Of a stretch of 64,000 nt of DNA, positions 3,610 to 46,178 are shown piece by piece. The stretch's first letter is position 1. Each line of letters begins with the position of its first letter. A program made the position numbers and the translations under genes. The notes beneath the pieces are model-generated. The model was not told the DNA's origin, made no database searches, and saw only the letters and a program-made list of their open reading frames with translations. The DNA is from a virus (lineage: Duplodnaviria; Heunggongvirae; Uroviricota; Caudoviricetes), in the IMG/VR virus record IMGVR_UViG_3300010882_000010; one strand, written 5' to 3'.

Positions 3610-4168
3610 TCCATATATTCATTATCAATGTATGGAATCATTTTATGGAATAAGAAAACCTGATGGATATGAAATAGAAGTACAATTTGTATGTGGATAT
3701 TCGGCAGCACAAGCACGTAATAAAGCTTGTAATCAGGCAATTAAGAGGGGATTTGACTACTTGTTAATGATAGACGCTGATCAAATTGCGCCAGCAGATA
3801 CTTTAGAAAAGTTAATTGCTTGTAATTCAGAAGTTTCATGTGGTTGGGCTATGCAGTGTGTGAATGACAATAGGACTAATATCTCAAAGTATGTGGCAGA
3901 GAAATCTTGGTATGATTTCTTTAGAATTGAAGAGTTAGATAGTTTGCCAGGTATTATTGAAGCAGATGCTATTGGTTTTGCATGTGTAATGATTAAGGTT
4001 TCTGTTTTTCAAAAATTAGAATATCCTTATTTTCGCTACATAGAATATGGAGATGGTACATGTCTTTCAGAAGATTTACAATTTAGTAGTTCTTTAAGAG
4101 CAAAAGGAATTCCAATAGTTGTTGATAAGAGTTTAAACTTGCCTCATCAAAAAATAATCAGCATATGA
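3572..4168 (+). CDS. GT-A (family 2-like) glycosyltransferase
   Basis: ILLAIPTY, ARNKAC, DYLLMIDADQ (DxD), GFACVMIK, LSEDLQFS. Confidence 0.8.
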   Translation: MNKQILLAIPTYSPYIHYQCMESFYGIRKPDGYEIEVQFVCGYSAAQARNKACNQAIKRGFDYLLMIDADQIAPADTLEKLIACNSEVSCGWAMQCVNDNRTNISKYVAEKSWYDFFRIEELDSLPGIIEADAIGFACVMIKVSVFQKLEYPYFRYIEYGDGTCLSEDLQFSSSLRAKGIPIVVDKSLNLPHQKIISI

Positions 4169-4452
4169 AAACTTTAGATCAATTTCTTAATGAGAAAGAA
4201 AACAAAGGATTAGATGTTGAACAAAGGATAAAGTTTACTGAAGTTTTGCAAGAATATCGTAAAGTTTCACATCTTTCTGAAAATGATGAAATCATAACAG
4301 GTAAAGGAGAAACAGGACTTTTTGTTTCAGTAAAAGGCGGGAGAATGACAATTAAAGACAAAGAAGGAAATCTAAAATTCAGTAGTGCTAATAAGCCTGA
4401 ATCCATAGGAAAATTCGTAGAACAATTTTGGTTTTGGAATAAAGGAGGTTGA
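4165..4452 (+). CDS. Putative internal head protein (capsid-targeting leader)
   Basis: N-terminus MKTLDQFLNE resembles the T4 CTS MKTYQEFIAE and the leaders at 33.5-42.2 kb. Confidence 0.55.
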   Translation: MKTLDQFLNEKENKGLDVEQRIKFTEVLQEYRKVSHLSENDEIITGKGETGLFVSVKGGRMTIKDKEGNLKFSSANKPESIGKFVEQFWFWNKGG

Positions 4453-33285: not shown

Positions 33286-33564
33286 ATGAATAATTTATTT
33301 TTAGGTCATGTTTATATTGAAAATAATATTGAATATAGACCTACTAAAGAAAATAAACAATTTATAGTAGGTTTACATCTTACAAGACCTCTTAATTCCG
33401 GAATTTGGTTACATAATTTAAGTGGAGATTCAATTTATTTTCCTAAAACCGGATTTATAGCTGGCGGAATTTATAATTATCCAATAATTAAAATAGTTTA
33501 TGAAGATCCAGAAAGTGATAATAATGCTTTCTTGGGTTGTTATTATAATAAAATTAATAAATAA
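33286..33564 (+). CDS. Hypothetical protein
   Basis: ATG 33286 is the likely start. Confidence 0.55.
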   Translation: MNNLFLGHVYIENNIEYRPTKENKQFIVGLHLTRPLNSGIWLHNLSGDSIYFPKTGFIAGGIYNYPIIKIVYEDPESDNNAFLGCYYNKINK

Positions 33565-33567
33565 GTA

Positions 33568-34062
33568 ATGAAACAAAGAATACCAATATTTGAAGATTTT
33601 ATAAATGAAGTAAGTAGAGGTCCAAAACAATTATATTATTATCTTATTTGGAATAATGGAAAGGAGGAAATTATTTCAGGATATAGTTTTAGTAATGCGT
33701 TAGAAATAGCAGATTACAATATTTCTAATTCTCAATTACCAGACCAATTAAAAAGTTGGAAAGAAGTTAATAGAAGTGAAGCTATTAAATTAGATAAAAA
33801 AATAAGAACTAATGAAGGTTTTGGATATTTTGGCTCTGATGAGTATTTAGAATCAAGAATAGAAACTATTGAAAGCTTAAAGAAGGGAGATAAAATTCAA
33901 GTTATTCTTAATGATAAACAAGAATTGAATGGTGATTTTATTATGGCAGAATTTAATAAAAATGATTATGAAGAAGGTATTATTTGGATGAAGTTATTAA
34001 AAAATGGTAGAAAAGAAAAACTTACAATAGGTAGTATTGAAGAAATTAAAAAATTGAAATAA
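33568..34062 (+). CDS. Putative internal head protein 1
   Basis: Leader MKQRIPIFEDFINE. Confidence 0.65.
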   Translation: MKQRIPIFEDFINEVSRGPKQLYYYLIWNNGKEEIISGYSFSNALEIADYNISNSQLPDQLKSWKEVNRSEAIKLDKKIRTNEGFGYFGSDEYLESRIETIESLKKGDKIQVILNDKQELNGDFIMAEFNKNDYEEGIIWMKLLKNGRKEKLTIGSIEEIKKLK

Positions 34063-34065
34063 GCA

Positions 34066-35067
34066 ATGAAACAAAGAATATCTAATCTTGAAACATACTT
34101 AAACGAGTCTTCAAATGATTCTTATGAATTATTGAAATCTGTTTTATTAGATAAAAAAGGTAAACTTAAAACCGAATATACTGATTATATTTATAATTCA
34201 ACAAGTTTTACTTATAATAAAAAAGAGGATAGATTTGAATGGAGACTTTATTTAGATAGAGGTGAAAATCCAAAAGAATTTTTATTAAATATTATTGAAG
34301 ATTTCAATAGTAAAAAAGATGGCGGTCTTGAAGATTATTTTAGAGAAAAAGTTCAGGATGCTTATATGGAAATTGAGTTTGAAATAGAAAAAAATTTAAT
34401 AAATGCTACAGCAAAATATCTTTCTGAAATAGGAATTGAAAGTTATGAGTATGATGATATTAGAGAACTTATTGTTTATGATTATTTTATGATAGATTTT
34501 GAGCCTATTTTTAAAACAATTTATAGAACAGATGTGCAAGTTGCTTTAGTTCTTAATGCAAATGATGATATGAATTATGAAGGATATAATAATTTAATTT
34601 CAGACAATGATAATTCTGTTACAATTAAAGAAATTACACAAAAGGGAAGTTCGTGGGGATGGTTATTAAAATCACAAGGATATACACCAAAACAATTACA
34701 AAATGCTATTATTGAAGAAGTAGATGAAGGTAAATTTATTAACTCTTGTAGAAAAGAAATAAGAAATATGAGTTATGGTGGATTTATTACTTTCTTAGGA
34801 ACAATGACTATTAAAGATTTTCTTGAAATAAAAAGTTCAGTAAAAGGTAGAAGTTCTATTACAGTTTCTAAAGATTGTACTTGTGGTATTTATGGACCAT
34901 ACAATGGATCTGGTAGTATTTTAGGTATTGAATTGGAAAAAAATATTCAAATTCCTTATAATTCAGATAAATGGAGATTAGATTTGGATAATTATAGTGA
35001 AATGGGTTATGATATTCAAGACGTATTTTCTTTAGCAAGCGCTGCTTTTAAAGGTGGAATTTGGTAA
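34066..35067 (+). CDS. Putative internal head protein 2
   Basis: Leader MKQRISNLETYLNE. Confidence 0.65.
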   Translation: MKQRISNLETYLNESSNDSYELLKSVLLDKKGKLKTEYTDYIYNSTSFTYNKKEDRFEWRLYLDRGENPKEFLLNIIEDFNSKKDGGLEDYFREKVQDAYMEIEFEIEKNLINATAKYLSEIGIESYEYDDIRELIVYDYFMIDFEPIFKTIYRTDVQVALVLNANDDMNYEGYNNLISDNDNSVTIKEITQKGSSWGWLLKSQGYTPKQLQNAIIEEVDEGKFINSCRKEIRNMSYGGFITFLGTMTIKDFLEIKSSVKGRSSITVSKDCTCGIYGPYNGSGSILGIELEKNIQIPYNSDKWRLDLDNYSEMGYDIQDVFSLASAAFKGGIW

Positions 35068-35113
35068 AAAATAACAGGATTATATCCTACATTATTATAA
35101 AAAATAATTAACT

Positions 35114-35326
35114 ATGAATAAACGTATTAGTAATTTAAATGATTTTATGAATGAAGATGTTGATTTTTCAAAAGATATTAAAATATATTCTTATAAAGAC
35201 GATTTAATAATTTCAAAACATTGGAAAGACAATTATTTTTTGGTTGAAATACCGGGTATAACACGTATAAAATTACCTAAAACAGAAATTTCATCATTGG
35301 CAATATTTTTTAATAATATTAAATAA
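35114..35326 (+). CDS. Putative internal head protein 3
   Basis: Leader MNKRISNLNDFMNE. Confidence 0.65.
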   Translation: MNKRISNLNDFMNEDVDFSKDIKIYSYKDDLIISKHWKDNYFLVEIPGITRIKLPKTEISSLAIFFNNIK

Positions 35327-35374
35327 AACTTACAATAATATAGGGTATATTCCTGAAAAATAATAAATATAATA

Positions 35375-35800
35375 ATGAAATCATTTGGAGAAATATTAAA
35401 TGAAGCACAAAAGCTTGATTATTATGTTGTAAATACTTTTGGTAGTGCAGCACAATATCCAATTACATCATCTGTAAAAGGATTTGAAATAAAAAGAGAA
35501 CCTATTAAACCTATTTCTATTTACGGAAATTATAATGTAGGAATGGATGATGAAGGTACAAATAATGTTACTGTTGTAAATTTACAATTTGAAATGTCAG
35601 ATAATTCTAAATTTGATATTGGAGTTGATAGTAGGAATCCAAAAAGAGAAAATCTTACTATTAGAGTAGATGGAAAACGACCATTTTCTTATAGTTTTGG
35701 AATTTTTGAAGATATTTTTAATAAAGAAGGAAATAAAGATGTAATTTATACTTGTTTAATTTTAATCAAGGAATTATTTTACGATAAATATGAAGGATAA
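35375..35800 (+). CDS. Putative internal head protein 4
   Basis: Leader MKSFGEILNE. Confidence 0.65.
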   Translation: MKSFGEILNEAQKLDYYVVNTFGSAAQYPITSSVKGFEIKREPIKPISIYGNYNVGMDDEGTNNVTVVNLQFEMSDNSKFDIGVDSRNPKRENLTIRVDGKRPFSYSFGIFEDIFNKEGNKDVIYTCLILIKELFYDKYEG

Positions 35801-35813
35801 AAAATAAATTATT

Positions 35814-36956
35814 ATGAAACAGAGATTTATTTCATTAGAAAATTATATTAAGGAAAATTGGGAAAATCAATTTGATTTTGCTAATAATCAACCAACTTGG
35901 AGAGATCCCACAGATTATATTGAAGTTGGAAAAGAAGTTACTATAGAAGGAACCGATTATGAAGTTCTTTCTATTGAAAAGTTTGGAAAAGATAGAGATG
36001 GTGGAAAAACAGTAGCAAAAATGACAGTTAAAGATTTAAAAACAGGTAATCCTCTTAAAGCAAAATGGAATGGATACATGCATGTTTTAGAAAATCTTAA
36101 TGAAGCTAAGGATTTAAGAACTTTAAGAAATCCAGAAAAATCTATACTTGGACAATTTTTTAAAGATAAAAAGAATGAAGAATCTTGGGCAGTTTTTGTT
36201 TATCATAATAATGGTCCAAACTGGAATATTGGGTATACATCTCAAAGATTTTGGGAAAGTCCAAAAGATTGGAATGTGTATGCTGATAATCTTAGTAAAA
36301 ATGACGCAATAGAAAAAGCCGAAAAGTTTTTATTGGATAATGAAGATAAAAGAAAAAGAGGTGAATCAAAATACTCAGACTTAAGAGGAGATGATGCAGT
36401 TTTCGTTGGAATCATTGAAGATAAAGAATTATTAGAATCAAAGGGTTATGAGTATTTAGGATCTTTGGAACATCCTGATATGAATGAAGGAATTTTTTAT
36501 AAGTTAGGACGTATGGTTTATGATATTGGAACTTCAGTAGGATTTAGTGTTGAGGCGGGAGAAAGAGGCGATCTTGATGTTACTTATAACAGGGTTAAAA
36601 AAACATGGGATTTTAATCCAAATATTCCTAAATCTTTACATAGCAAGATTAAAAAAGACATATTTTCAATAATAAATGAAGCAACAACGAGTAGTAAATG
36701 TTTTAATGAAGGGACAGTTAATGAAGTTAAAAGAGGAGCTTTTGATGGAAAAGAGTTAACAGATAAAGATATTGATGATTACTTTAAAACTATAGGTAAA
36801 ACGGGGATTATCGGACTTTGGAATAATATGATGTTTCATACCAGTTTAACAAGAGAAGAGCTTAAAGAAATTTTTGCGGAAAGAGGATATGATATGGAAA
36901 TTCCTAAAGAAGATTATAAACATGTAAAATTTGTAGGCTACAATAAAAATTACTAA
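35814..36956 (+). CDS. Putative internal head protein 5 (possible polyprotein)
   Basis: Leader MKQRFISLENYIKE; internal LNE/LLE/INE/FNE/VNE. Confidence 0.65.
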   Translation: MKQRFISLENYIKENWENQFDFANNQPTWRDPTDYIEVGKEVTIEGTDYEVLSIEKFGKDRDGGKTVAKMTVKDLKTGNPLKAKWNGYMHVLENLNEAKDLRTLRNPEKSILGQFFKDKKNEESWAVFVYHNNGPNWNIGYTSQRFWESPKDWNVYADNLSKNDAIEKAEKFLLDNEDKRKRGESKYSDLRGDDAVFVGIIEDKELLESKGYEYLGSLEHPDMNEGIFYKLGRMVYDIGTSVGFSVEAGERGDLDVTYNRVKKTWDFNPNIPKSLHSKIKKDIFSIINEATTSSKCFNEGTVNEVKRGAFDGKELTDKDIDDYFKTIGKTGIIGLWNNMMFHTSLTREELKEIFAERGYDMEIPKEDYKHVKFVGYNKNY

Positions 36957-36960
36957 ATAA

Positions 36961-37347
36961 ATGAAAATACCATTATTTGAGGACTTTATAAATGAATATA
37001 AATTTTCTACAATACAACAAGATTTAGGTGAAAATATATTATATTTTCATAATAATTTTTCTAAGGAACAAGAAAAACTAATAAGAACATATCTTAAATT
37101 ACCAAAAGATTATGATTTTGTTGCAAGTATTAGTGAATGGACTGAACCTCAAAAATATGAAAAAATTGAAAATATTATAAATCAAGAATTGGAACCTTGG
37201 GCAACTGTTGGAAATTTAGAATTTAGATTACTTGATTCTTTTGGTAAGATTAAAATTGTTGAATATAGAAATACTTATATAAAACAAAGAAAAACAACAA
37301 TATTTTTAATGAATCCAGATGTTGCAAGTGCAAATGGATTAGTTTAA
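36961..37347 (+). CDS. Putative internal head protein 6
   Basis: Leader MKIPLFEDFINE. Confidence 0.65.
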   Translation: MKIPLFEDFINEYKFSTIQQDLGENILYFHNNFSKEQEKLIRTYLKLPKDYDFVASISEWTEPQKYEKIENIINQELEPWATVGNLEFRLLDSFGKIKIVEYRNTYIKQRKTTIFLMNPDVASANGLV

Positions 37348-37362
37348 AATTAAAAAACTATT

Positions 37363-37641
37363 ATGAGAATACCATTATTTGAGGACTTTATAAATGAATA
37401 TAAAACTATAAATTTAACTGATTATCCAACAGAAGAGGTTGAAAAGAAAATTAATATTTTAGAAATTGGAGAAAAAGTTTTTCTTGTTAAAAAGGATGGT
37501 ATGAAAATTAGTAATTGTACTTTTGAAGGATTAATAAAAGATAATAAAAGTATTCAGATACAACAAAAAGGTGTCAGAGGAACATGGATTATTCCAATTG
37601 AAAATATTTTGAAAATAGATACTAAAGAATTTAGTTTATAA
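37363..37641 (+). CDS. Putative internal head protein 7
   Basis: Leader MRIPLFEDFINE. Confidence 0.65.
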   Translation: MRIPLFEDFINEYKTINLTDYPTEEVEKKINILEIGEKVFLVKKDGMKISNCTFEGLIKDNKSIQIQQKGVRGTWIIPIENILKIDTKEFSL

Positions 37642-37664
37642 AAATAAAATAAATAAAATAAATT

Positions 37665-38063
37665 ATGAAACAGTTTATCTCATCTTTTGATGAATTTATA
37701 GTTGAAGACTACGATTACCGTTTTGATACGGGAGATTATTATGATCGAAGAAAATCGCGGGATCCGCATGGATTTTCAACTGATTATGATAAAGATTTTT
37801 CATATTTAGTTGGAAAGACAGTAGGTCTTAAAACAGAAAGATATGGAAGAATTGACAAAGTAAGTGCCAAAATCAAACAAGTAGAAAATAATGGCGAAGA
37901 CATTGTATTGAACTTTGGAAATATTGGTGCTTTTGTAAATAAAGACGAACAAAAATCAAATGAAATTCCGTTAGATGTTATTGAAAAGGGTGGAAAAGTT
38001 TCAATTAGCGTTAGAGATATGAGTAGTGGTGATGATTGGAGAGGAATACTTAACATAAAATAG
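37665..38063 (+). CDS. Putative internal head protein 8
   Basis: Leader MKQFISSFDEFIVE. Confidence 0.65.
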   Translation: MKQFISSFDEFIVEDYDYRFDTGDYYDRRKSRDPHGFSTDYDKDFSYLVGKTVGLKTERYGRIDKVSAKIKQVENNGEDIVLNFGNIGAFVNKDEQKSNEIPLDVIEKGGKVSISVRDMSSGDDWRGILNIK

Positions 38064-38074
38064 AATTATAAAAT

Positions 38075-38443
38075 ATGAAACAAAGAATTCAAAATTTTGA
38101 ACAATATATAATTGAGGCAAGAAATATTAAAATTAATGGAGTTAATATTTCTAATGAAGACGAATTAAGAAAGGTTACAAATAAATTACCTGTTTTTGTT
38201 AAAAAAATATCTTTTAATGATTATGGTTCTGGATGGGGAAATTCTAATTATATTGGTTTAACTTTTGAAAAAGAATATGGTGTAGGAACTCTTAAAAAAT
38301 ATGCAAAAATATTTACTGAATTAATGCAAGAAGAGTTTCCAGGGTTTAAACCATTTGAAACTATAATTAATCCTATTTTAATAAATTCAGGTAAAAGAGA
38401 TTTAAGAAAAGAAGGGTTTGGAGATTTTATGTTAGTTTGGTAA
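38075..38443 (+). CDS. Putative internal head protein 9
   Basis: Leader MKQRIQNFEQYIIE. Confidence 0.65.
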   Translation: MKQRIQNFEQYIIEARNIKINGVNISNEDELRKVTNKLPVFVKKISFNDYGSGWGNSNYIGLTFEKEYGVGTLKKYAKIFTELMQEEFPGFKPFETIINPILINSGKRDLRKEGFGDFMLVW

Positions 38444-38470
38444 AGATAAAATGATAAAATAATAAAATAT

Positions 38471-39043
38471 ATGAAACAAAGAATAAGTACTTTAGAAAAT
38501 TACATCAATGAAAATCTTAATACAATGCAAAGAAGAGATATTGATGGATTTACAAAACCAGAACGTGAATGGATCTGGAAAACTTTAGGTATGCAAAATG
38601 GGTCAGATGTTTATCAAGTTCATTCAATGGAAGGAGTTAATAAAGCAGTAGCAAAAAGGGGTCAAGAAAATCCGGATTTTACAAAAGTAACAAAAAATCT
38701 AGGCAAGAAACTTGAAGGACCTATTAATTTTGGAGGACCAACAAGCCACAGAAATTGGTTTGTATATCAAGGAGAAAATTCTCCTGTGATTTCTATGGAA
38801 TCGGAAAATAATCAAGGTAATCAAGTCACTTATTTTTATTTTATGGATGCAGATGCTATTAATGAAAGTAAAATTATTGAATATTCTGTAATAAATCTTA
38901 ATGAAAAATTTGATATTAAAAAATTAGAATGGAAAAATTTTGATTATGAATTAGGTGAATTTTTATCAGATTATTTAGATACTATGAAATTAAAAGATAT
39001 AGCAGATGCTTTAAGATATGCAGCAGATAATTTAGATGAATAA
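38471..39043 (+). CDS. Putative internal head protein 10
   Basis: Leader MKQRISTLENYINE. Confidence 0.65.
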   Translation: MKQRISTLENYINENLNTMQRRDIDGFTKPEREWIWKTLGMQNGSDVYQVHSMEGVNKAVAKRGQENPDFTKVTKNLGKKLEGPINFGGPTSHRNWFVYQGENSPVISMESENNQGNQVTYFYFMDADAINESKIIEYSVINLNEKFDIKKLEWKNFDYELGEFLSDYLDTMKLKDIADALRYAADNLDE

Positions 39044-39061
39044 AAATATTAAAAAAATAAT

Positions 39062-39544
39062 ATGAAACAAAGGATACTAAATTTAGAAGAGTTTATTATG
39101 GAAGGAAACTTAAATGAAGCACAAGCAATAAGAATTTCCGGTTTTACAATTCTTTCAAAAGTATATCAAACAATGAAAGATGGATTACCATTTAAAGTTG
39201 TTATTAATGGAATACAATGTGCTGGATATTTAAATCCCATGTATTCTTATACTGGTGATGGCTTAGACTGTGATGAACTTATTATTGGTGTAGAACATCC
39301 AAGTGATTGGAGAAAAGGAGATAGAGTACTAATTACACAAGCAGGTGGAGGACATCGTCATTATGCAATCCATTTTGGAGCATTACCTGAAAAAGAAAAA
39401 CAACCAAAAAGTTTAAGATTTACTGGTGCTTATTTAGAAACAAAACACTTAGGCGAAGAATTTAAAAGACAATTAACAGATATTGTTATTAATCATCCAG
39501 ATTGGTTAACAGATAAATTTAAAGATAAATTTGGATTAAAATAG
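39062..39544 (+). CDS. Putative internal head protein 11
   Basis: Leader MKQRILNLEEFIME. Confidence 0.65.
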   Translation: MKQRILNLEEFIMEGNLNEAQAIRISGFTILSKVYQTMKDGLPFKVVINGIQCAGYLNPMYSYTGDGLDCDELIIGVEHPSDWRKGDRVLITQAGGGHRHYAIHFGALPEKEKQPKSLRFTGAYLETKHLGEEFKRQLTDIVINHPDWLTDKFKDKFGLK

Positions 39545-39571
39545 TTTTCTAGAGAAAACAAAAAAACACTT

Positions 39572-40288
39572 ATGAAACAGAGAATTTTAACATTCGAACA
39601 ATTTATTACAGAATCAAAATTAAATGAAAATGGACCTTTTAAACAACCATTAGAACAAATTTTTGGTTCTTTAATTAAAGGTTGGTATTATGATAGAAAT
39701 ATTGACGGTTTTTCAGAAGGTATGGATATTGCAGGAATTCCTGTTACTTTCTTTTTAAGACATCCAGATGAAATTGATGAAATTCCCGATTTTACTTTAG
39801 TAATTGAAGTAGGAGATGATGGTGAAAGTGGTGTTGCAATTTTAGAAGGTGAAAAAGAAATTAAGAAATTTTTAAAAGATGAATTATCAAAATTACAAAA
39901 AGCTACAAGTCCTAAAGAAATGGATAAAATAATTATTAAAGCAGGGTTTGAGTTAGTAGAAAGTCATATTGCATATCCAAAGGGTAAAAAAGTAAATGAA
40001 GCTGCTAGAAATCCATATCAAGATTTTATTAATTATTTTAAACAAGCAATTGCCGGAGCTGGTAAAGAAAATCATTATAAAATTAAAGATGCTTTATCTT
40101 GGTTTATTAAATCTAATTTTGATAAAAATGAGTTTGTAAGTGAAATGGACTGGAGATCAAATTATGGAAATAGTAAAGGATATGCACAATATCTTAAAGC
40201 AAAACATGTACTAAATGATAATGGATTACATGGTGAACCTGTACCACATGATGAAATGTTAAAAATTGTAAATAATCTTTTAGGATAA
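39572..40288 (+). CDS. Putative internal head protein 12
   Basis: Leader MKQRILTFEQFITE. Confidence 0.65.
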   Translation: MKQRILTFEQFITESKLNENGPFKQPLEQIFGSLIKGWYYDRNIDGFSEGMDIAGIPVTFFLRHPDEIDEIPDFTLVIEVGDDGESGVAILEGEKEIKKFLKDELSKLQKATSPKEMDKIIIKAGFELVESHIAYPKGKKVNEAARNPYQDFINYFKQAIAGAGKENHYKIKDALSWFIKSNFDKNEFVSEMDWRSNYGNSKGYAQYLKAKHVLNDNGLHGEPVPHDEMLKIVNNLLG

Positions 40289-40305
40289 TAAAATTAAGTT
40301 AAAAT

Positions 40306-40764
40306 ATGAAAAGAATTATTTCATTTAAAGATTTCATAAATGAAAATAAAGGTTTTCTTAATGAAGGAAAATTTTATAATTTAGATTATGATATTAAAAA
40401 TTTTATAAAAGATAATCCAGATTTTAATGCAAAATCTTATATTGAATTAAATGCACATAATACAAGTATTTCTATTCGTAAACAATATTATTATCTTGAA
40501 GGTATTGCAGATACAATAATTTATCAAAGTGGTTTAGGAAGAAATGTTAAATATGAATCTATTGGAAACGGAAATCCCAAAATTATTTTTAATGTAAGAT
40601 TAGATGAAGATAGAGTTAAAGACGGATTGGAATCATTAGTTGGATATTTTGGAAGTGATAAAAGAACAGGTGCTCATTATTCAGAAATTGAAGAAAATGA
40701 AAAGGAGGAAACAATAGTTAGTGCCGAAAATGATTATGGTGATATTTCTAGCCGATTATTATAA
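40306..40764 (+). CDS. Putative internal head protein 13
   Basis: Leader MKRIISFKDFINE. Confidence 0.65.
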   Translation: MKRIISFKDFINENKGFLNEGKFYNLDYDIKNFIKDNPDFNAKSYIELNAHNTSISIRKQYYYLEGIADTIIYQSGLGRNVKYESIGNGNPKIIFNVRLDEDRVKDGLESLVGYFGSDKRTGAHYSEIEENEKEETIVSAENDYGDISSRLL

Positions 40765-40778
40765 AAAGATAAACTATT

Positions 40779-40961
40779 ATGAATTATTGTGAATATTGCG
40801 GAAAAGAAGTAAAAGGAAATAAACGGTTTTGTTCTAAAAAATGTGCACAAGCTGTAAACGAAGAAAAATATGAACTTTATAATCATTTTGTAGACCAAGA
40901 GAATGGACAAGATAATTCATATTTAGATTATATTGATACAGGAATTTCAATTTATGGATAA
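40779..40961 (+). CDS. Small zinc-ribbon protein (no leader)
   Basis: YCEYCGKEV...FCSKKC. Confidence 0.65.
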   Translation: MNYCEYCGKEVKGNKRFCSKKCAQAVNEEKYELYNHFVDQENGQDNSYLDYIDTGISIYG

Positions 40962-40975
40962 AAATAAAAAATATA

Positions 40976-41359
40976 ATGAGTAGGATTAAATCATTTGAGG
41001 AATTTATAAACGAAAGCACAGTTTTTGAGTTGGGAAAAGCTTATGAGAAAATTAGAGTAAGTGAATTTCCAATTGAGCCAAGAAAGTTTATTAAAGATCA
41101 TTTTAGAAAAAATATAATTGAAGTTTATAAAGTAGATAATAATCTCAAAAGTGACTATAATGAACTTTTAAGTATAAGAACATATGGTAAACTTATTGAT
41201 GAAGTTTCTTTTAATGATGATGGCGCAATAATGTATTTCAAAGCATATTTATTTAAATTAACGGGAGAAAAATTGTTATTTATTAATTATCAAGCACAAG
41301 GCGTAAAAAATTCTTATCATTGTGCACTTTTAGAAAATAAAGAATTACAATATATCTAA
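40976..41359 (+). CDS. Putative internal head protein 14
   Basis: Leader MSRIKSFEEFINE. Confidence 0.65.
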   Translation: MSRIKSFEEFINESTVFELGKAYEKIRVSEFPIEPRKFIKDHFRKNIIEVYKVDNNLKSDYNELLSIRTYGKLIDEVSFNDDGAIMYFKAYLFKLTGEKLLFINYQAQGVKNSYHCALLENKELQYI

Positions 41360-41375
41360 TATGAAAATTTCAATT

Positions 41376-41383
41376 TATAAATA
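41376..41383 (+). promoter_or_regulatory. T4-type late promoter TATAAATA
   Basis: Exact T4 gp55 consensus, intergenic, upstream of 41418. Confidence 0.45.
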
Positions 41384-41417
41384 AAATATAGTTTTCTTTA
41401 AGAAACAAAAAAAACTT

Positions 41418-42245
41418 ATGAAACAAAGAATTTCAAATTTAAATAATTTTATTAATGAAAATAGATTTGGTGCTGGTATAAATACATATCTTAATTTAAA
41501 AGATGGACGCAAAAATCAATTTTTTACAAAACACTATAAAAATTGGAATGATAGTGATAAAAATGTAATTTTTATTATAGAAGATCCAAATAAATCAAAT
41601 TCTTATAGTGTGATGTCAGCTACTTATAGTAGTTATGATAATCCAGCTCATTGGGAATCTTATAATACACCAAAAGATGGTATGAGTTTACGAGAAGCAG
41701 AAAACGTTGCAAAAGAATTAGCTGATGTAAATTCTCAAATTCATCAAAAATATTATTATTTTAAATATCATAAAAATGATAATTCAATTTATGAATATAT
41801 TGGGGTTTTAGATAATAAAGAATTAAAAAGTATTTCCGAAAATAAAGATTTTATACAAGAATCAAAATATGATTTTTTATCTCAAGATTTTGGTATTGAT
41901 TTTAAAATTGATGAAGTTATTAAATCAATCGAAAGATTTTTAACTAAATATAATATTTCTTCTGAATTTTTACAATTAACTAAGACATCTACAGAATATA
42001 TTGAATTATTGGGTCATTCAGAATTATTTACAGGATTAAGTAGTTTATATCAAAAAATATTATTAAAATTTGATAGATATTTAACACATATTTATGAATA
42101 TAAATTATGGGTTTCTAAAGATCCTAAAGGTAATAGTGGTCCTATTTATGAAAAAGAAATTCAAAAAGGTATTAAGTATTTTTTAGGAGGAGGAATGGAA
42201 GAAGAATTACAAAAATTTAGAAATTCTGTTAGTAAAGTTTCTTAA
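41418..42245 (+). CDS. Putative internal head protein 15
   Basis: Leader MKQRISNLNNFINE. Confidence 0.65.
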   Translation: MKQRISNLNNFINENRFGAGINTYLNLKDGRKNQFFTKHYKNWNDSDKNVIFIIEDPNKSNSYSVMSATYSSYDNPAHWESYNTPKDGMSLREAENVAKELADVNSQIHQKYYYFKYHKNDNSIYEYIGVLDNKELKSISENKDFIQESKYDFLSQDFGIDFKIDEVIKSIERFLTKYNISSEFLQLTKTSTEYIELLGHSELFTGLSSLYQKILLKFDRYLTHIYEYKLWVSKDPKGNSGPIYEKEIQKGIKYFLGGGMEEELQKFRNSVSKVS

Positions 42246-42282: not shown

Positions 42283-44361
42283 ATGAAAAACGAAAAAGTA
42301 GTTTTAATTTGTGAAAGTACTGGTACAAATTTGGATGTAGTTGATAAAAATAATTATCGGCTAGAGGGGATATTTGCGGTTTTTGATAAGGAAAATAATA
42401 ATCATAGAATTTATGAGTGGAATGAATATAAACCACATATGAATTATCTTCAAGATCAAATTAAGAAGAATAAATTAGTTGGTGAGTTAGATCATCCTGA
42501 TAAATTTGATATTTCTCTTCAAAATGTTTCTCATATTGTAGAGAAGCTTTGGTATGATGAAAAAGAAAATGTTCTTAAAGGACAAATTCGTCTTTTAGAT
42601 ACTGATCCAAATGGTATGAATGCAAGAAAACTTTTAGATGCGGGATTTCCATTAGGTATTTCTTCTCGTGCGGCAGGTACTGTTCAAGAAAATAAAAAAG
42701 TTCGTCTTAACAAAGTTTTTACTTATGATTTAGTTTGTTCAACAGGTTTTCAAGGTGCTGATTTAGAACGTATTACAGAATCTGTAGGGTTTAATCCTGA
42801 AGATTATTCTAAAGAACCTACTTTAACTTTATTAAATGAATCATTAGGTATTGACAATAATAATATTAAAGTTTATGATGTAACAGACCAATATCCAGAA
42901 TATCTTACCGGAAGTGAAATTATTGATCAAATAGGTATTGAAAGTTATATTAAACAATATATTGTTGGCGAAAGAGGAAAGGATAGAATTAAAAATGAAT
43001 CTGAAATATATAATAAAAATAATGCAAAAAATATGAAAGATACTAGTAATTTTGTTTCTATTGATGAAATGCACAAGTATTCATTACATGTAAAAGAAGA
43101 AGTTAGTCGTATTGATAAAACGTTACAAAGTATTTCTGAAAGTATTTCTAAAATAGTTACAGGTGATGATACATCTAAAGACGAAAAAATTCTTGCTTTA
43201 GAAAAAGAGATTTCTAAATTAAGAAAAGATTCTTTAGATTTATCTGAAAAAATGTCTACTGTTTACAAATGGTCTGAGGAAATTTCTAAAGATCATAATT
43301 ATCTTGTAGAGTATACTGAAAAAATTGCGGAAGACCATAATCATTTGGTAAACTATGCAGAAAAAATTGCAGAAGATCACAATTACCTTACTAATTATAC
43401 TGAAAAGATTGCTGAAGATCATAATTACCTTGCAAATTATGCAGAGAAAATTGCAGAGGATCATAATTATGTAGCAAGTTATGTTGATGATAAAATTAGA
43501 CCACTTCTTGAAAATACAATAAATTATGCTGAAATGGTTGCTGAAAAAGCTAATATTGGTATGAATTATGTTGAGGATGTAATTGTAAATGAATTACACA
43601 AAACACAAGAGTATGTGAATGATGTATTGGTGGAAAAACTTAATGTTCTTTGGAATTATAGTGAATATCTTGGAGAAAAAGCAAATGAAGTAACTTCTTA
43701 TGCTGAATATCTTGGAGAAAATGCAGCAACAAAAGAAGATTTAGAATCAGTGATTGGTTACACAGAATTAGTAGCTGAATCTGTTAAATCTTTAAAAGTT
43801 AATGAATCAAAGAATACTACAATAAATGAAAATGCAACAGTTAATAGATACACAAGCCTAAATGAGAAAATAGACAATCTTCTCCATTCGATTAAAACAG
43901 AAAAGATCAATGAAAACAAATTTTTAGGTAATCTAACAAATGAACAACAAAAAAGATTTATCAATTTTACAGACGTACAAAAAGAACAGTTCGAAAAATC
44001 GTTAAATCCGGCAATGAATCAAGAACAGATTCAAATGATGTTTGAGTCAATTTCGACTCCTAAAATTCTTTCTAATGAAGAAAGATGGCTTGCAGCAATG
44101 CCAGAGAATGTTAAACCTCTTTGGGAAAGTGTAACTCCTGAATTAAAAGAAAGAATTTTTAGAAACGCACAATTGTACAATTTTAACAATGATTATGCGG
44201 TAAAACACTATTGGAACTCTAAAATTAGTTTACTTGGCGGACAAAATGATACTACTTTGATAAAAGAAAGTACTCAAAATGAATTAGAAGATGAAAAAGT
44301 TAAAACTCTTGGATATGGTTCAGACTATATCAAATCTATCTTCGAAAAAATGGGTAACTAA
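42283..44361 (+). CDS. gp21: Prohead core protease (gp21-like) fused to scaffold (gp22-like)
   Basis: LEGIFA...N.NHRIY, LVGELDHP, VSH, GISSRAAG, YDLV; C-terminal coiled coil with repeats; precedes the capsid gene. Confidence 0.85.
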   Translation: MKNEKVVLICESTGTNLDVVDKNNYRLEGIFAVFDKENNNHRIYEWNEYKPHMNYLQDQIKKNKLVGELDHPDKFDISLQNVSHIVEKLWYDEKENVLKGQIRLLDTDPNGMNARKLLDAGFPLGISSRAAGTVQENKKVRLNKVFTYDLVCSTGFQGADLERITESVGFNPEDYSKEPTLTLLNESLGIDNNNIKVYDVTDQYPEYLTGSEIIDQIGIESYIKQYIVGERGKDRIKNESEIYNKNNAKNMKDTSNFVSIDEMHKYSLHVKEEVSRIDKTLQSISESISKIVTGDDTSKDEKILALEKEISKLRKDSLDLSEKMSTVYKWSEEISKDHNYLVEYTEKIAEDHNHLVNYAEKIAEDHNYLTNYTEKIAEDHNYLANYAEKIAEDHNYVASYVDDKIRPLLENTINYAEMVAEKANIGMNYVEDVIVNELHKTQEYVNDVLVEKLNVLWNYSEYLGEKANEVTSYAEYLGENAATKEDLESVIGYTELVAESVKSLKVNESKNTTINENATVNRYTSLNEKIDNLLHSIKTEKINENKFLGNLTNEQQKRFINFTDVQKEQFEKSLNPAMNQEQIQMMFESISTPKILSNEERWLAAMPENVKPLWESVTPELKERIFRNAQLYNFNNDYAVKHYWNSKISLLGGQNDTTLIKESTQNELEDEKVKTLGYGSDYIKSIFEKMGN
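43276..43485 (+). repeat. Five tandem 42 bp / 14 aa repeats in the scaffold region
   Basis: EEISKDHNYLVEYT, EKIAEDHNHLVNYA, EKIAEDHNYLTNYT, EKIAEDHNYLANYA, EKIAEDHNYVASYV. Confidence 0.9.
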
Positions 44362-44405: not shown

Positions 44406-46178
44406 ATGAAATTATTAAACGAAAAACAAATCTTTGAAGAATGGTCACCAATGATCATGGAAAAAGCTGGTGTAGAAGACAAAGGTAAATTACAATGGTT
44501 GTCAAAATATTGTCATTTTCATGCGTTAAATGAAAGTTCTTTTATTCCTAATATGCCAAGTTGGCCACTTGCTAGCTTGCAAAACACTCCAGGTATGGGT
44601 AATGTTCGCACTGGTACGATTGCTGGTGGAGCAAACAACTTCTACAATGGAACAACAGGTTCTGGTGATAAATTCCCAAGCCTACTTCCTCTTGCTATTC
44701 AAGTAGGCGCAAGAACAGTAGGTTTTGATATTGTGCCGGTTATCCCAATGAACGGTCCTAGCGGAGTTCTTACTTACTTAGACTATGTTTATGCTGGTGG
44801 TAAAAACAATCCGTCAATCTCTCAAGATGCTGAATTAGAATATCCTGCAGATGAACTTCAAGAAATGCCAACTGTTATTAAAGCTGATATTACACTTCCT
44901 ACTGGTGAATTTTTCGAAATTGGAAAACTTTACAATGCTGGTGATTTGGATATGATCTATGTTGGTAAATCACGTGTAGATGGTTTCTCTATTTTCAGAA
45001 TTTTAAAAGAAGGTGAAAAATACAGAACTACTGCAAGTAAAGCTTTACAAACTTCTGCAACTGTTGCAGGTGTTACTATTGCTGATGTTTTTGGTATTGG
45101 ATCAACAGAAGAACTTGAAACAAGTAAAAAAGATGCAACTGGTGCAATTGTAGCTGGTAGTGATGTTGTTATTGGTAACTCAAAACCGTCATTAGTTAAA
45201 GCTCTTGAAGATCACATTCAAGGTTTTGCTGGTTCTGGTGCTTTTGATAGTGATGATTGGACAGGTAACTTTGTAAACGGTAAGATGATTGCTGAACCTA
45301 TGCGTAGAGGTATTGGAGAACAAACTCCATTCAGAACTATGGGTCTTCAAGCTTTCACAAAATATGTTGAAGCTGGTACTTTTCAAGTTGCTGCTACTGT
45401 AACTACAGAACAAATCCAAGACTTGAATCGTCAATTTGGTATTGATGTTGTAGGTATGGTTGAAAACTCACTTACTAATGAAATTTCACAACACATCAAT
45501 AAACACATCTTGAGTCGTGCTTTTGCTCTTGGTTGGTCAAACCATAAACAATTCTCAATTGTTGAAGGTCAATCTTTGAACATGACTGCAGTTCCTGGTG
45601 TGGCTTCTGTTGTTGTACGTCATGTAGGTAAAGATAATAGTATGCAAGATATGACAGTTGCAGGCTTTGTTGACTATGCAGCTGGTGGTCCTGGTGCTTC
45701 TTTCGAAAATCAATGGACAATTCAAAGACGTGTATTCTCTAAAATCCTTGCTGCCGGTAATATTATCGCACAAAGAGGACGTAGAGGACCTGCTAACTTT
45801 ATTGTAACTAACTTGCAAATTGCAACAGTATTACAAGATAGTGCACAATTTACTTTTGCTCCTATGGCTAATACTATCAACCAAAATAACGGATCTTTAT
45901 TCCCAGTAGGTGCTATTGCAGGTATTACTGTTTATGTTGATCCTAATATGGCTTGGGACGATAATAGAGTACTTGTAGGACGTAAAGGTGCTGATGAAGA
46001 ACCGGGTTTAAAATTCATGCCTTACTTACTTGCTGAAAGTATCCAAACTATTGCTGAAGGAACTATGGCTCCTAAAATTGCAGTAAAATCGCGTTATGCT
46101 CTTGTAGAAGCAGGTTTCCATCCTGAAACTCAATACTTGACTTTCTGGGTTGAAACAGGTGGTATCTCAATTGTGTAG
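44406..46178 (+). CDS. gp23: Major capsid protein (T4 gp23-like)
   Basis: VVPVIPMNGPSG.L.YL, EISQHINKHIL, GRRGPANFIV, ITVYVDP, GLKFMPY, KSRYAL; follows the protease. Confidence 0.9.
   Translation: MKLLNEKQIFEEWSPMIMEKAGVEDKGKLQWLSKYCHFHALNESSFIPNMPSWPLASLQNTPGMGNVRTGTIAGGANNFYNGTTGSGDKFPSLLPLAIQVGARTVGFDIVPVIPMNGPSGVLTYLDYVYAGGKNNPSISQDAELEYPADELQEMPTVIKADITLPTGEFFEIGKLYNAGDLDMIYVGKSRVDGFSIFRILKEGEKYRTTASKALQTSATVAGVTIADVFGIGSTEELETSKKDATGAIVAGSDVVIGNSKPSLVKALEDHIQGFAGSGAFDSDDWTGNFVNGKMIAEPMRRGIGEQTPFRTMGLQAFTKYVEAGTFQVAATVTTEQIQDLNRQFGIDVVGMVENSLTNEISQHINKHILSRAFALGWSNHKQFSIVEGQSLNMTAVPGVASVVVRHVGKDNSMQDMTVAGFVDYAAGGPGASFENQWTIQRRVFSKILAAGNIIAQRGRRGPANFIVTNLQIATVLQDSAQFTFAPMANTINQNNGSLFPVGAIAGITVYVDPNMAWDDNRVLVGRKGADEEPGLKFMPYLLAESIQTIAEGTMAPKIAVKSRYALVEAGFHPETQYLTFWVETGGISIV

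Follow-up and report, generated by a model that had tools for sequence, protein, structure and literature searches.

Record IMGVR_UViG_3300010882_000010, a 217.7 kb viral sequence of 30% G+C rated as linear and ~75% complete, belongs to an uncultured termite-gut jumbo phage. The stretch of it analysed here, 64,000 nt in length and hereafter the window, contains 16 consecutive open reading frames (ORFs) on the + strand (33568-42245), 15 of which begin with a common leader peptide that is followed by a body, or cargo, differing from gene to gene. In fourteen of the 16 the leader is 12-14 residues long, its pattern being M(K)(Q)RIxx[FL][EDNK]x[FY][ILM]xE. The ORF starting at 35375 has a leader of ten residues, MKSFGEILNE, which on sequence grounds is not a degenerate copy of the longer peptide, being a short form also present in related phages and in bacteriophage T4. 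The sole ORF of the array without a leader is that at 40779 (60 aa, starting MNYCEYCGKE). The listing of ORFs and translations therefore confirms the count of 15 in 16 given in an earlier note on this DNA, and the array does lie where that note placed it, directly upstream of the genes for a fused prohead protease-scaffold (42283-44361) and the major capsid protein (44406-46178), the gap to the former being 37 bases.

The array is bordered on its left by a conserved 92-aa gene (33286-33564, + strand) that matches no Pfam or PHROG family and has tblastn homologs at four related loci (L015, L016, L017 and L007). Leader gene 1 (33568-34062, 164 aa) starts with MKQRIPIFEDFINE, and its cargo likewise falls into no Pfam or PHROG family. 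In gene 2 (34066-35067, 333 aa) MKQRISNLETYLNE precedes a globular domain of ~300 aa matching phrog_23767 (6e-15). Gene 3 (35114-35326, 70 aa) starts with MNKRISNLNDFMNE, and gene 4 (35375-35800, 141 aa) is that with the short T4-type leader, comparable to MKSFSEFLNE at locus L019 and MKTYQEFIAE in T4. The product of gene 5 (35814-36956, 380 aa, MKQRFISLENYIKE) includes three internal [ILV]NE sites and, by BLASTP, a 79-residue module in common with a 551-aa leader protein from a second cluster elsewhere in the record. Next come genes 6 (36961-37347, 128 aa, MKIPLFEDFINE) and 7 (37363-37641, 92 aa, MRIPLFEDFINE), the leaders of which have 37 identical bases, and genes 8 (37665-38063, 132 aa, MKQFISSFDEFIVE), 9 (38075-38443, 122 aa, MKQRIQNFEQYIIE) and 10 (38471-39043, 190 aa, MKQRISTLENYINE). 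The leader of gene 11 (39062-39544, 160 aa, MKQRILNLEEFIME) is succeeded by a second site, GNLNE, that of gene 12 (39572-40288, 238 aa, MKQRILTFEQFITE) by SKLNE and that of gene 13 (40306-40764, 152 aa, MKRIISFKDFINE) by NKGFLNE. The leaderless ORF (40779-40961), which is rich in Cys and has weak matches to an HNH-endonuclease PHROG and to zinc-ribbon Pfam families, is probably the remnant of a homing endonuclease. The array closes with gene 14 (40976-41359, 127 aa, MSRIKSFEEFINE) and gene 15 (41418-42245, 275 aa, MKQRISNLNNFINE), the latter weakly resembling, in one module, a leader protein of 158 aa from the second cluster. Two similar intergenic elements stand ahead of genes 12 and 15 (39545-39571 and 41385-41417), each consisting of a short inverted repeat, GTTTTCT...AGAAAAC-like, and then an A-run.

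The leader is not confined to this array. In the parent record, for which our own crude call gave ~300 ORFs (66,888 residues), the core pattern I..[FL][EDNQK].[FY][ILMV].E occurs 25 times at an N-terminus and twice internally; in 200 residue shuffles the N-terminal matches had a mean of 0.04 and a maximum of 1. A looser scan finds ~30 leader-tagged genes, on one strand only, leaving ~270 ORFs without a leader. The second cluster, ~75 kb from the array, encodes leader proteins of 935, 551 and 392 residues, and there are several singletons besides; an isolated gene in the window (4165-4452, + strand, 95 aa) starts MKTLDQFLNE, with five of ten residues identical to T4. In most of the 28 leaders collected the final Glu is followed by S, A, N or G, and two positions that the search pattern left free are Arg (position 4) in 20 of 28 and Ile (position 5) in 25 of 28. 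Synonymous codons differ at the conserved residues and, genes 6 and 7 apart, no pair of leaders has more than 16 identical bases, which argues that selection acts on the peptide rather than the DNA. The exact leader DNA pattern matched just one other contig in IMG/VR, and starts of the type MKQ, MKR and MKK are frequent in this AT-rich genome. Read directly, the leaders are composed of alternating polar and acidic residues with no hydrophobic run; a Sec, Tat or lipoprotein signal peptide, needing a charged n-region and an h-region of ~7-15 residues, was rejected as their identity. Public assemblies of the source runs end exactly at genes 6 and 7, where the 37 bases are repeated (36973-37397), an illustration of the way in which leader repeats break up assemblies of phages like this one. 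Read joints linking one leader position to another, with sides of 20-22 bases, resemble artefacts of the repeat and were left uninterpreted.

The peptide resembles the capsid-targeting sequence (CTS) of T4. T4 itself, according to its sequence record, has MKTYQEFIAE at the start of both IPII and IPIII, and MKTFKEFTS...ITE at that of IPI. The first ten residues of IPIII are enough for packaging (PMC9026906, a review of the work of L. W. Black); residues 4 and 7 serve in targeting and residues 8 and 10 in processing, with the protease gp21 cutting after L/I-x-E (PMC9026906). When the leaders are right-aligned with the CTS on the Glu, T4 positions 4, 7, 8 and 10 pair with positions 8 (F/L), 11 (F/Y), 12 (I/L/V/M) and 14 (E) of the leader. 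All 28 leaders have these residue classes, a figure that measures match and not independent conservation because all four classes were fixed by the search pattern. The [ILMV]-x-E ending of all 28 was also required by that pattern, and is likewise a match rather than an independent test. By this alignment, the leader positions would be equivalent to the targeting and processing residues of T4, and the common leader has the form of a T4 CTS bearing a four-residue N-terminal extension, Q-R-I-x. Ten-residue forms are intermediate between the two, MKTLDQFLNE and MKSFGEILNE being present in this genome and MKTFTEYINE (L018), MKSFSEFLNE (L019) and MKTYSEFLLE (L020) in relatives. These short leaders are identical to T4 at five to seven of ten residues, MKTYSEFLLE at seven.

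The neighbouring genes supply a potential partner for the leader. The gene adjoining the array encodes 692 residues, of which the N-terminal part is a gp21-type protease (Pfam Peptidase_S77, 5.5e-14; PHROG 207, head maturation protease, 3.4e-36) and the rest a repeat-bearing scaffold. In an alignment of T4 gp21 and 42 relatives, His71 and Ser127/128 are invariant, as is Glu11 of an N-terminal LIxE that is the counterpart of LIE-9 in T4 gp21. The polypeptide has 24 [IL]xE sites, four of them IAE inside the repeats. These features fit, and do not prove, a protease of T4-like specificity, and the fusion is presumed to be both docking partner and processing enzyme of the leaders. A predicted complex of a 30-residue leader segment (31-row alignment) with the full protease-scaffold (43-row alignment) scored 0.00, which is evidence neither way. 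The Gp23-family capsid protein (Pfam Gp23, 4.8e-41) includes an [LI]xE near residue 43, ALNE here, that is conserved among the four non-T4 sequences aligned and is a candidate propeptide cut. As the earlier note reported, it starts MKLLNE (44406-44423). The start M-K-L-[LI]-N-E recurs at loci L015, L016, L017, L018, L019, L020 and L007, and MIKLINE in the uncultured 462-kb phage LR756500, so the [LI]NE that ends the leaders is found at capsid residues 4-6 as well, where T4 gp23 has no Glu; it may be cut there or may serve in docking.

Judged by the capsid protein, the closest phages in GenBank are LR756500 (44%), the Lak megaphages (40%) and Tenacibaculum jumbo phages (33%), and a megablast of the region against GenBank phages gave no match; much closer relatives are present in metagenomes only. 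A search with the protease-scaffold protein returned 1,932 proteins at E<=1e-10, and seven related loci with proteases 35-64% identical were sampled (L007 and L015-L020). Each has between one and nine genes with leader-like N-termini within ~10 kb of the protease, as against 0.04-0.1 expected from shuffles, and with L014 added the leader clusters around the protease gene at eight sampled loci of the clade with a fused protease-scaffold. For instance, in the 425-kb IMG/VR contig L007 at least 19 genes, distributed over at least three clusters, begin with MKQRIPTLDEFINE or a near variant, and in the 389-kb contig L019 the protease gene is immediately preceded by a run of six short-leader genes. 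At L018, leader-like starts are found on up to six genes within the 10 kb upstream of the protease, those passing the strict motif being MKTFTEYINE, MRTFEQYINE and MRSFEQYINE. By contrast, around the capsid genes of the Tenacibaculum phage PTm1, LR756500 and Lak-C1, where 25-42 kb were sampled, no leader set above chance was seen, which makes PTm1 unhelpful for a check against virion proteins. One gene of LR756500 (27492-28280) starts MKFLETYENHIEE, loosely leader-like and not passing the motif.

The cargos are not conserved along with the leader. When the 27 trimmed cargos were compared by tblastn (E<1e-3) with the leader clusters sampled from relatives, just one gave a match, and none did so in the 425-kb relative; the sole match, a weak one, pairs gene 12 (39572) with the single leader gene of L015 (31% over 154 residues, leader included). 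Protease (39-64%) and capsid protein (62-73%) match throughout the same relatives. Comparison of array content between related phages, a check proposed in the earlier note, thus finds the leader kept and the cargo replaced. The left flank gene has its homolog directly upstream of the protease gene in L016, L017 and L007, one leader gene separates the two in L015, the protease of which is 64% identical, and 16 genes do so here. Close relatives therefore differ greatly in how many genes occupy this junction, and the array is a growth zone for leader genes. Several short-leader genes at L018 (1246-7200) and L019 (6143-8709) are true paralogs. Directly behind the predicted cut site they share a motif, that of L018 being QKYIFGGTDNRNT and that of L019 [YN]FRLGGS.KKGF, and these cargo families are absent from the present genome. 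Homing-endonuclease-like genes occur inside both leader clusters of this genome (window 40779-40961; L002:8013-8765 in the second cluster) and beside the capsid genes of relatives (L015 5743-7350, L016 7619-9916, L018 13832-14839 and L020 13868-14911). They comprise the HNH/zinc-ribbon remnant and DUF7487 proteins with a TnsA-like domain, and may aid the movement of cassettes.

The cargos range from 51 to 921 residues after removal of the leader. An all-against-all BLASTP of the trimmed bodies found just a few short, weak partial matches or common modules, so that the earlier description of them as diverging completely was nearly right, these few similarities being what it missed. Almost none belongs to a Pfam, PHROG or NCBIfam family, and PDB sequence searches with three large cargos gave nothing usable. 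The only recognisable enzyme domain is in the 392-residue leader protein of the second cluster (L002:10145-11323, - strand), which has a C-terminal YqiA/UPF0227 alpha/beta-hydrolase domain above the Pfam cut-off (2.9e-8), with a GSSMG nucleophile elbow and later Asp and His candidates. Structural look-ups in the ESM Atlas for three cargos were discarded as noise-level (pLDDT 0.36-0.50), including unsubstantiated, weak rows of ADP-ribosyltransferase type for gene 2. Amid the second cluster there is also a leaderless PG_binding_1 protein, of the endolysin-type cell-wall binding kind (L002:7252-8031, - strand).

Several cargos have further potential cut sites. A second [ILV]NE follows within 3-8 residues of the leader in about a third of them. 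Compared with the remaining proteins of the genome, trimmed cargo is 3.5-fold enriched in [IL]NE (p 9e-5) and sevenfold in [IL]NE with A, S, G or N as the next residue; the control motifs [IL]ND, [IL]NQ and [IL]NK show no enrichment, and the difference supports [IL]NE as a functional site. The 935-residue leader protein of the second cluster (L002:1163-3970, - strand), which is weakly similar to the product of the next gene, has E-x-[IL]NE junctions at ~303, 405 and 508, and from its sequence looks like a polyprotein that would be cut into domain-sized pieces.

Gene 2 is the cargo for which most can be said. Word-indexed searches, with the protein alone and with a two-sequence profile, found one relative: P0002, 34% identical and without a leader, encoded between the portal and protease genes of phage L014. 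An exhaustive profile search extended this to 658 representative clusters at E<=0.001. More distant homologs are encoded close to the termini of Bacillus Nitunavirus genomes, in company with small early-type genes, and others occur in bacteria; by sequence the gene 2 body is part of a widespread uncharacterised family, in which a Cys-Gly...Gly-x-Gly-Ser motif is conserved. An AlphaFold (AF2) model from a 52-member alignment is of high confidence (pLDDT 90, pTM 0.85) and shows the leader (residues 2-14) as a helix of its own, modelled with less confidence, in front of the globular body. It has no clear match among solved structures (best Foldseek PDB E 0.46; best VIA Z 5.1), one match in BFVD, to an uncharacterised Gordonia phage protein, and weak Atlas rows. 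Its best fold match is an AFDB cluster automatically named 'Antirestriction protein' (E 1.6e-13, TM 0.63). Pfam and NCBIfam searches with 52 family members gave nothing above noise, and so no curated support for that name, which homology to a characterised family such as ArdA, ArdB/KlcA, ArdC, Ocr or IPI would provide; the antirestriction label is only a lead. Structure prediction and Foldseek, as the earlier note had advised for the cargos, thus gave a confident model and an AFDB match for gene 2, with no clear solved structure, and proved unusable for gene 15, the single-sequence AF2 model of which had a pLDDT of 42.

All public runs containing the array region are termite-gut metagenomes, from three studies, with no RNA runs listed among them; identical pieces of the array are also present in a run from a separate study. 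A Shine-Dalgarno-like 4-mer lies upstream of just 6% of the ORFs in the record, and the more distant matches of the capsid protein are phages of Prevotella and Flavobacteriia; a Bacteroidota host is plausible, these two features being consistent with it and neither amounting to proof. A portal gene was not found by BLAST in the ~75% complete record, and a Pfam Portal_T4 search was uninformative, as it had no match in the record or in the controls. The head module may therefore be split from the portal, or the portal may be in the missing part.

We consider it probable that the leaders are T4-type propeptides, by which cargo is brought into the core of the prohead and which are then cleaved off behind the Glu. 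This capsid-targeting role had been put forward in the earlier note, and is supported by the protease next door, the (L/I)xE ending, the match to T4 residues and the persistence of the leader in relatives with other cargo. From the T4 analogy we infer docking, cleavage, retention in the virion, ejection and any role in the host. The tagged proteins would be made late, alongside the head proteins. The leader would form a short helix that has Ile5, Phe/Leu8, Phe/Tyr11 and Ile/Leu12 along the same face and docks the protein onto the scaffold core, here fused to the protease, and the capsid shell would close round the loaded core. The gp21-type serine protease would then cut after the invariant Glu of [ILMV]-x-E, with a second cut at the nearby [ILV]NE in about a third of proteins and cuts at [ILV]NE between domains in some. 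The freed cargo would stay beside the DNA inside the head, and its exit at infection would most likely be together with that DNA. By analogy with the internal proteins of T4, and given two weak clues from the cargos themselves, an anti-defence or host-takeover function may be envisaged.

A number of observations weigh against such an account. The phage is known from metagenomes alone, through an incomplete record in which the portal gene was not found. Nineteen of 27 cargos have an isoelectric point below 6, being mildly acidic, and they reach 921 residues, while the internal proteins of T4 are small and basic. The overall density of [IL]xE in cargo is neither depleted nor enriched; as cutting at every such site would shred the cargo, accessibility must be invoked, as it is in T4. 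The cleavage site of T4 gp23 does not align with any [IL]xE in this capsid protein, and the 'effector' label is borrowed by analogy.

The leader could give entry to the prohead without the proteins being destined for the host, if they are only parts of the assembly core, like T4 gp67, gp68 and the scaffold, that shape or fill the large head and are then degraded or expelled. The array is within the head-morphogenesis module beside the scaffold gene, the gene 2 homolog of L014 is located between portal and protease, the position of T4 genes 67 and 68, internal [IL]NE sites would permit fragmentation, and IPIII mutants of T4 have head-assembly defects (PMC9026906). However, core parts would be expected to be conserved, and the cargo sets are nearly unshared, one weak match aside, between phages that retain protease, capsid and flank genes; the number of genes at the junction varies from 0 to 16 among relatives. 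One cargo has an esterase domain with a GSSMG nucleophile elbow, and the gene 2 family extends to early-type accessory regions of Bacillus phages and to bacteria. We therefore regard a purely structural role as unlikely.

It is very improbable that the leader addresses its proteins to another machine, such as a modifying enzyme that serves many tagged substrates, of the kind acting on ribosomally synthesised and post-translationally modified peptides, an export route or another phage compartment. No Radical_SAM match was found in the 217.7-kb record, where 14 of 14 control genomes matched, an absence that is not final given ~75% completeness; the leader is without the hydrophobic core of a Sec, Tat or lipoprotein signal, its last residues form the cut motif of gp21, and it follows the T4 CTS residue by residue. 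Its clustering at the protease in eight loci of the clade, set against chance levels near the capsid genes of PTm1, LR756500 and Lak-C1, also speaks for the head. The common start might instead be a by-product, either of recent tandem duplications with diverged bodies or of a DNA or RNA signal such as a translation start enhancer or recombination site. The 37 bases identical between genes 6 and 7, the frequency of MKQ, MKR and MKK starts in an AT-rich genome and the breaking of assemblies at the repeated leader are all in keeping with this. Conservation nevertheless runs through 14 residues up to an invariant Glu, codons differ synonymously with most leader pairs having only 14-16 bases in common, cargos of 51-921 residues have no detectable homology, the same peptide precedes different cargo in phages with 35-64% identical proteases, and ~270 other ORFs lack it, such that we judge this origin very unlikely.

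If the leaders are T4-type propeptides, the closest precedent is that of the T-even phages, in which a conserved CTS on diverse, polymorphic internal proteins is established (PMC3012670, PMC9026906, PMC12373910). Ip1-3 of T4 have the leader alone in common, are injected and each block a different GmrSD nuclease (PMC12373910, PMC3012670). Both systems have a short N-terminal propeptide, within the 10-19 residues of the T4 kind, ending (L/I)-x-E on otherwise unrelated proteins, protease, scaffold and capsid genes of gp21, gp22 and gp23 type, and cargo genes grouped in variable hotspots. However, most leaders here are 14 residues long with a conserved Arg-Ile, as opposed to ten in T4, and ~30 genes are tagged, 15 of them in tandem, where T4 has three and the T-evens together at least ten kinds. 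The cargo is mostly acidic, up to 921 residues in length and sometimes polyprotein-like, protease and scaffold form one polypeptide, and the host is not an enterobacterium, the phage inhabiting the termite gut and probably infecting Bacteroidota. Packaging is established in T4 and predicted here.

Other phages load proteins into the head by different means. Like the phage described here, for which these properties are predicted, phiKZ, 201phi2-1 and SPN3US are jumbo phages with many head-internal proteins and a gp21-related protease that cuts after Glu (PMC5694885, PMC7411985, PMC10052503), and numbers of paralogs or cargos vary between relatives in both cases. By contrast, their propeptides are mostly >100 residues long (range ~80-130), with small-x-E sites of AxE/AQE type (PMC5694885), and many of the proteins form true paralog families, in place of a T4-like leader of 10-14 residues on unrelated bodies. 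Identification of the array with ejection proteins of the phiKZ/SPN3US type was rejected, the leaders having 10-14 residues and Ile, Leu, Val or Met two before the Glu, and no paralog family uniting the cargo. Polyvalent proteins and the Dar proteins of P1 are similarly loaded into the head and delivered with the DNA earliest in infection, and large multi-domain cargos among them may be cut (PMC5512222, PMC9024508), as is predicted here. Polyvalent proteins differ in combining many domains in one chain, with MuF, portal-associated or other loading, as opposed to separate genes that are each tagged; none of the multidomain homologs scanned reached the cut-off of a polyvalent-domain family.

The arrangement is thus a known T4 principle, greatly expanded, in a distant lineage. 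What appears to be new, as read from the genes, is that the T4 signal is recognisable residue by residue in a distant clade of termite-gut jumbo phages, in an extended form of 14 residues, on ~30 genes of one genome with 15 in tandem at a defined junction, and in combination with tandem and internal [IL]NE sites. Our literature search found no paper linking a capsid-targeting sequence to phages of Flavobacteriia or to huge phages. A broader proposal, which we advance tentatively and hold to be possible rather than probable, is that, in the jumbo clade with a fused protease-scaffold, the T4 CTS serves as an address tag of ancient origin that can pass from gene to gene, borne by about one gene in ten of this genome, and that new cargo genes accumulate at the junction beside the protease.

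The residue-level conservation of the T4 CTS far outside the T-evens would make the scaffold docking site a testable, conserved interface, and suggests a trial of short leaders from these phages as tags for packaging in laboratory phages. Provided that the leader functions as it does in T4, the particle-borne proteins of an uncultured lineage could be listed from the genome without growing the phage. All three T4 precedents specifically inhibit host nucleases, and ~30 orphan proteins per genome, nearly all differing between relatives, would constitute a rich and cheap pool of candidates for counter-defence or host takeover. Should the broader proposal be true, the whole injected proteome of these phages, comprising enzymes, polyproteins cut at [IL]NE and candidate antirestriction proteins, would be readable from sequence alone, and would offer a direct route to the counter-defence factors of phages infecting termite-gut bacteria, probably Bacteroidota.

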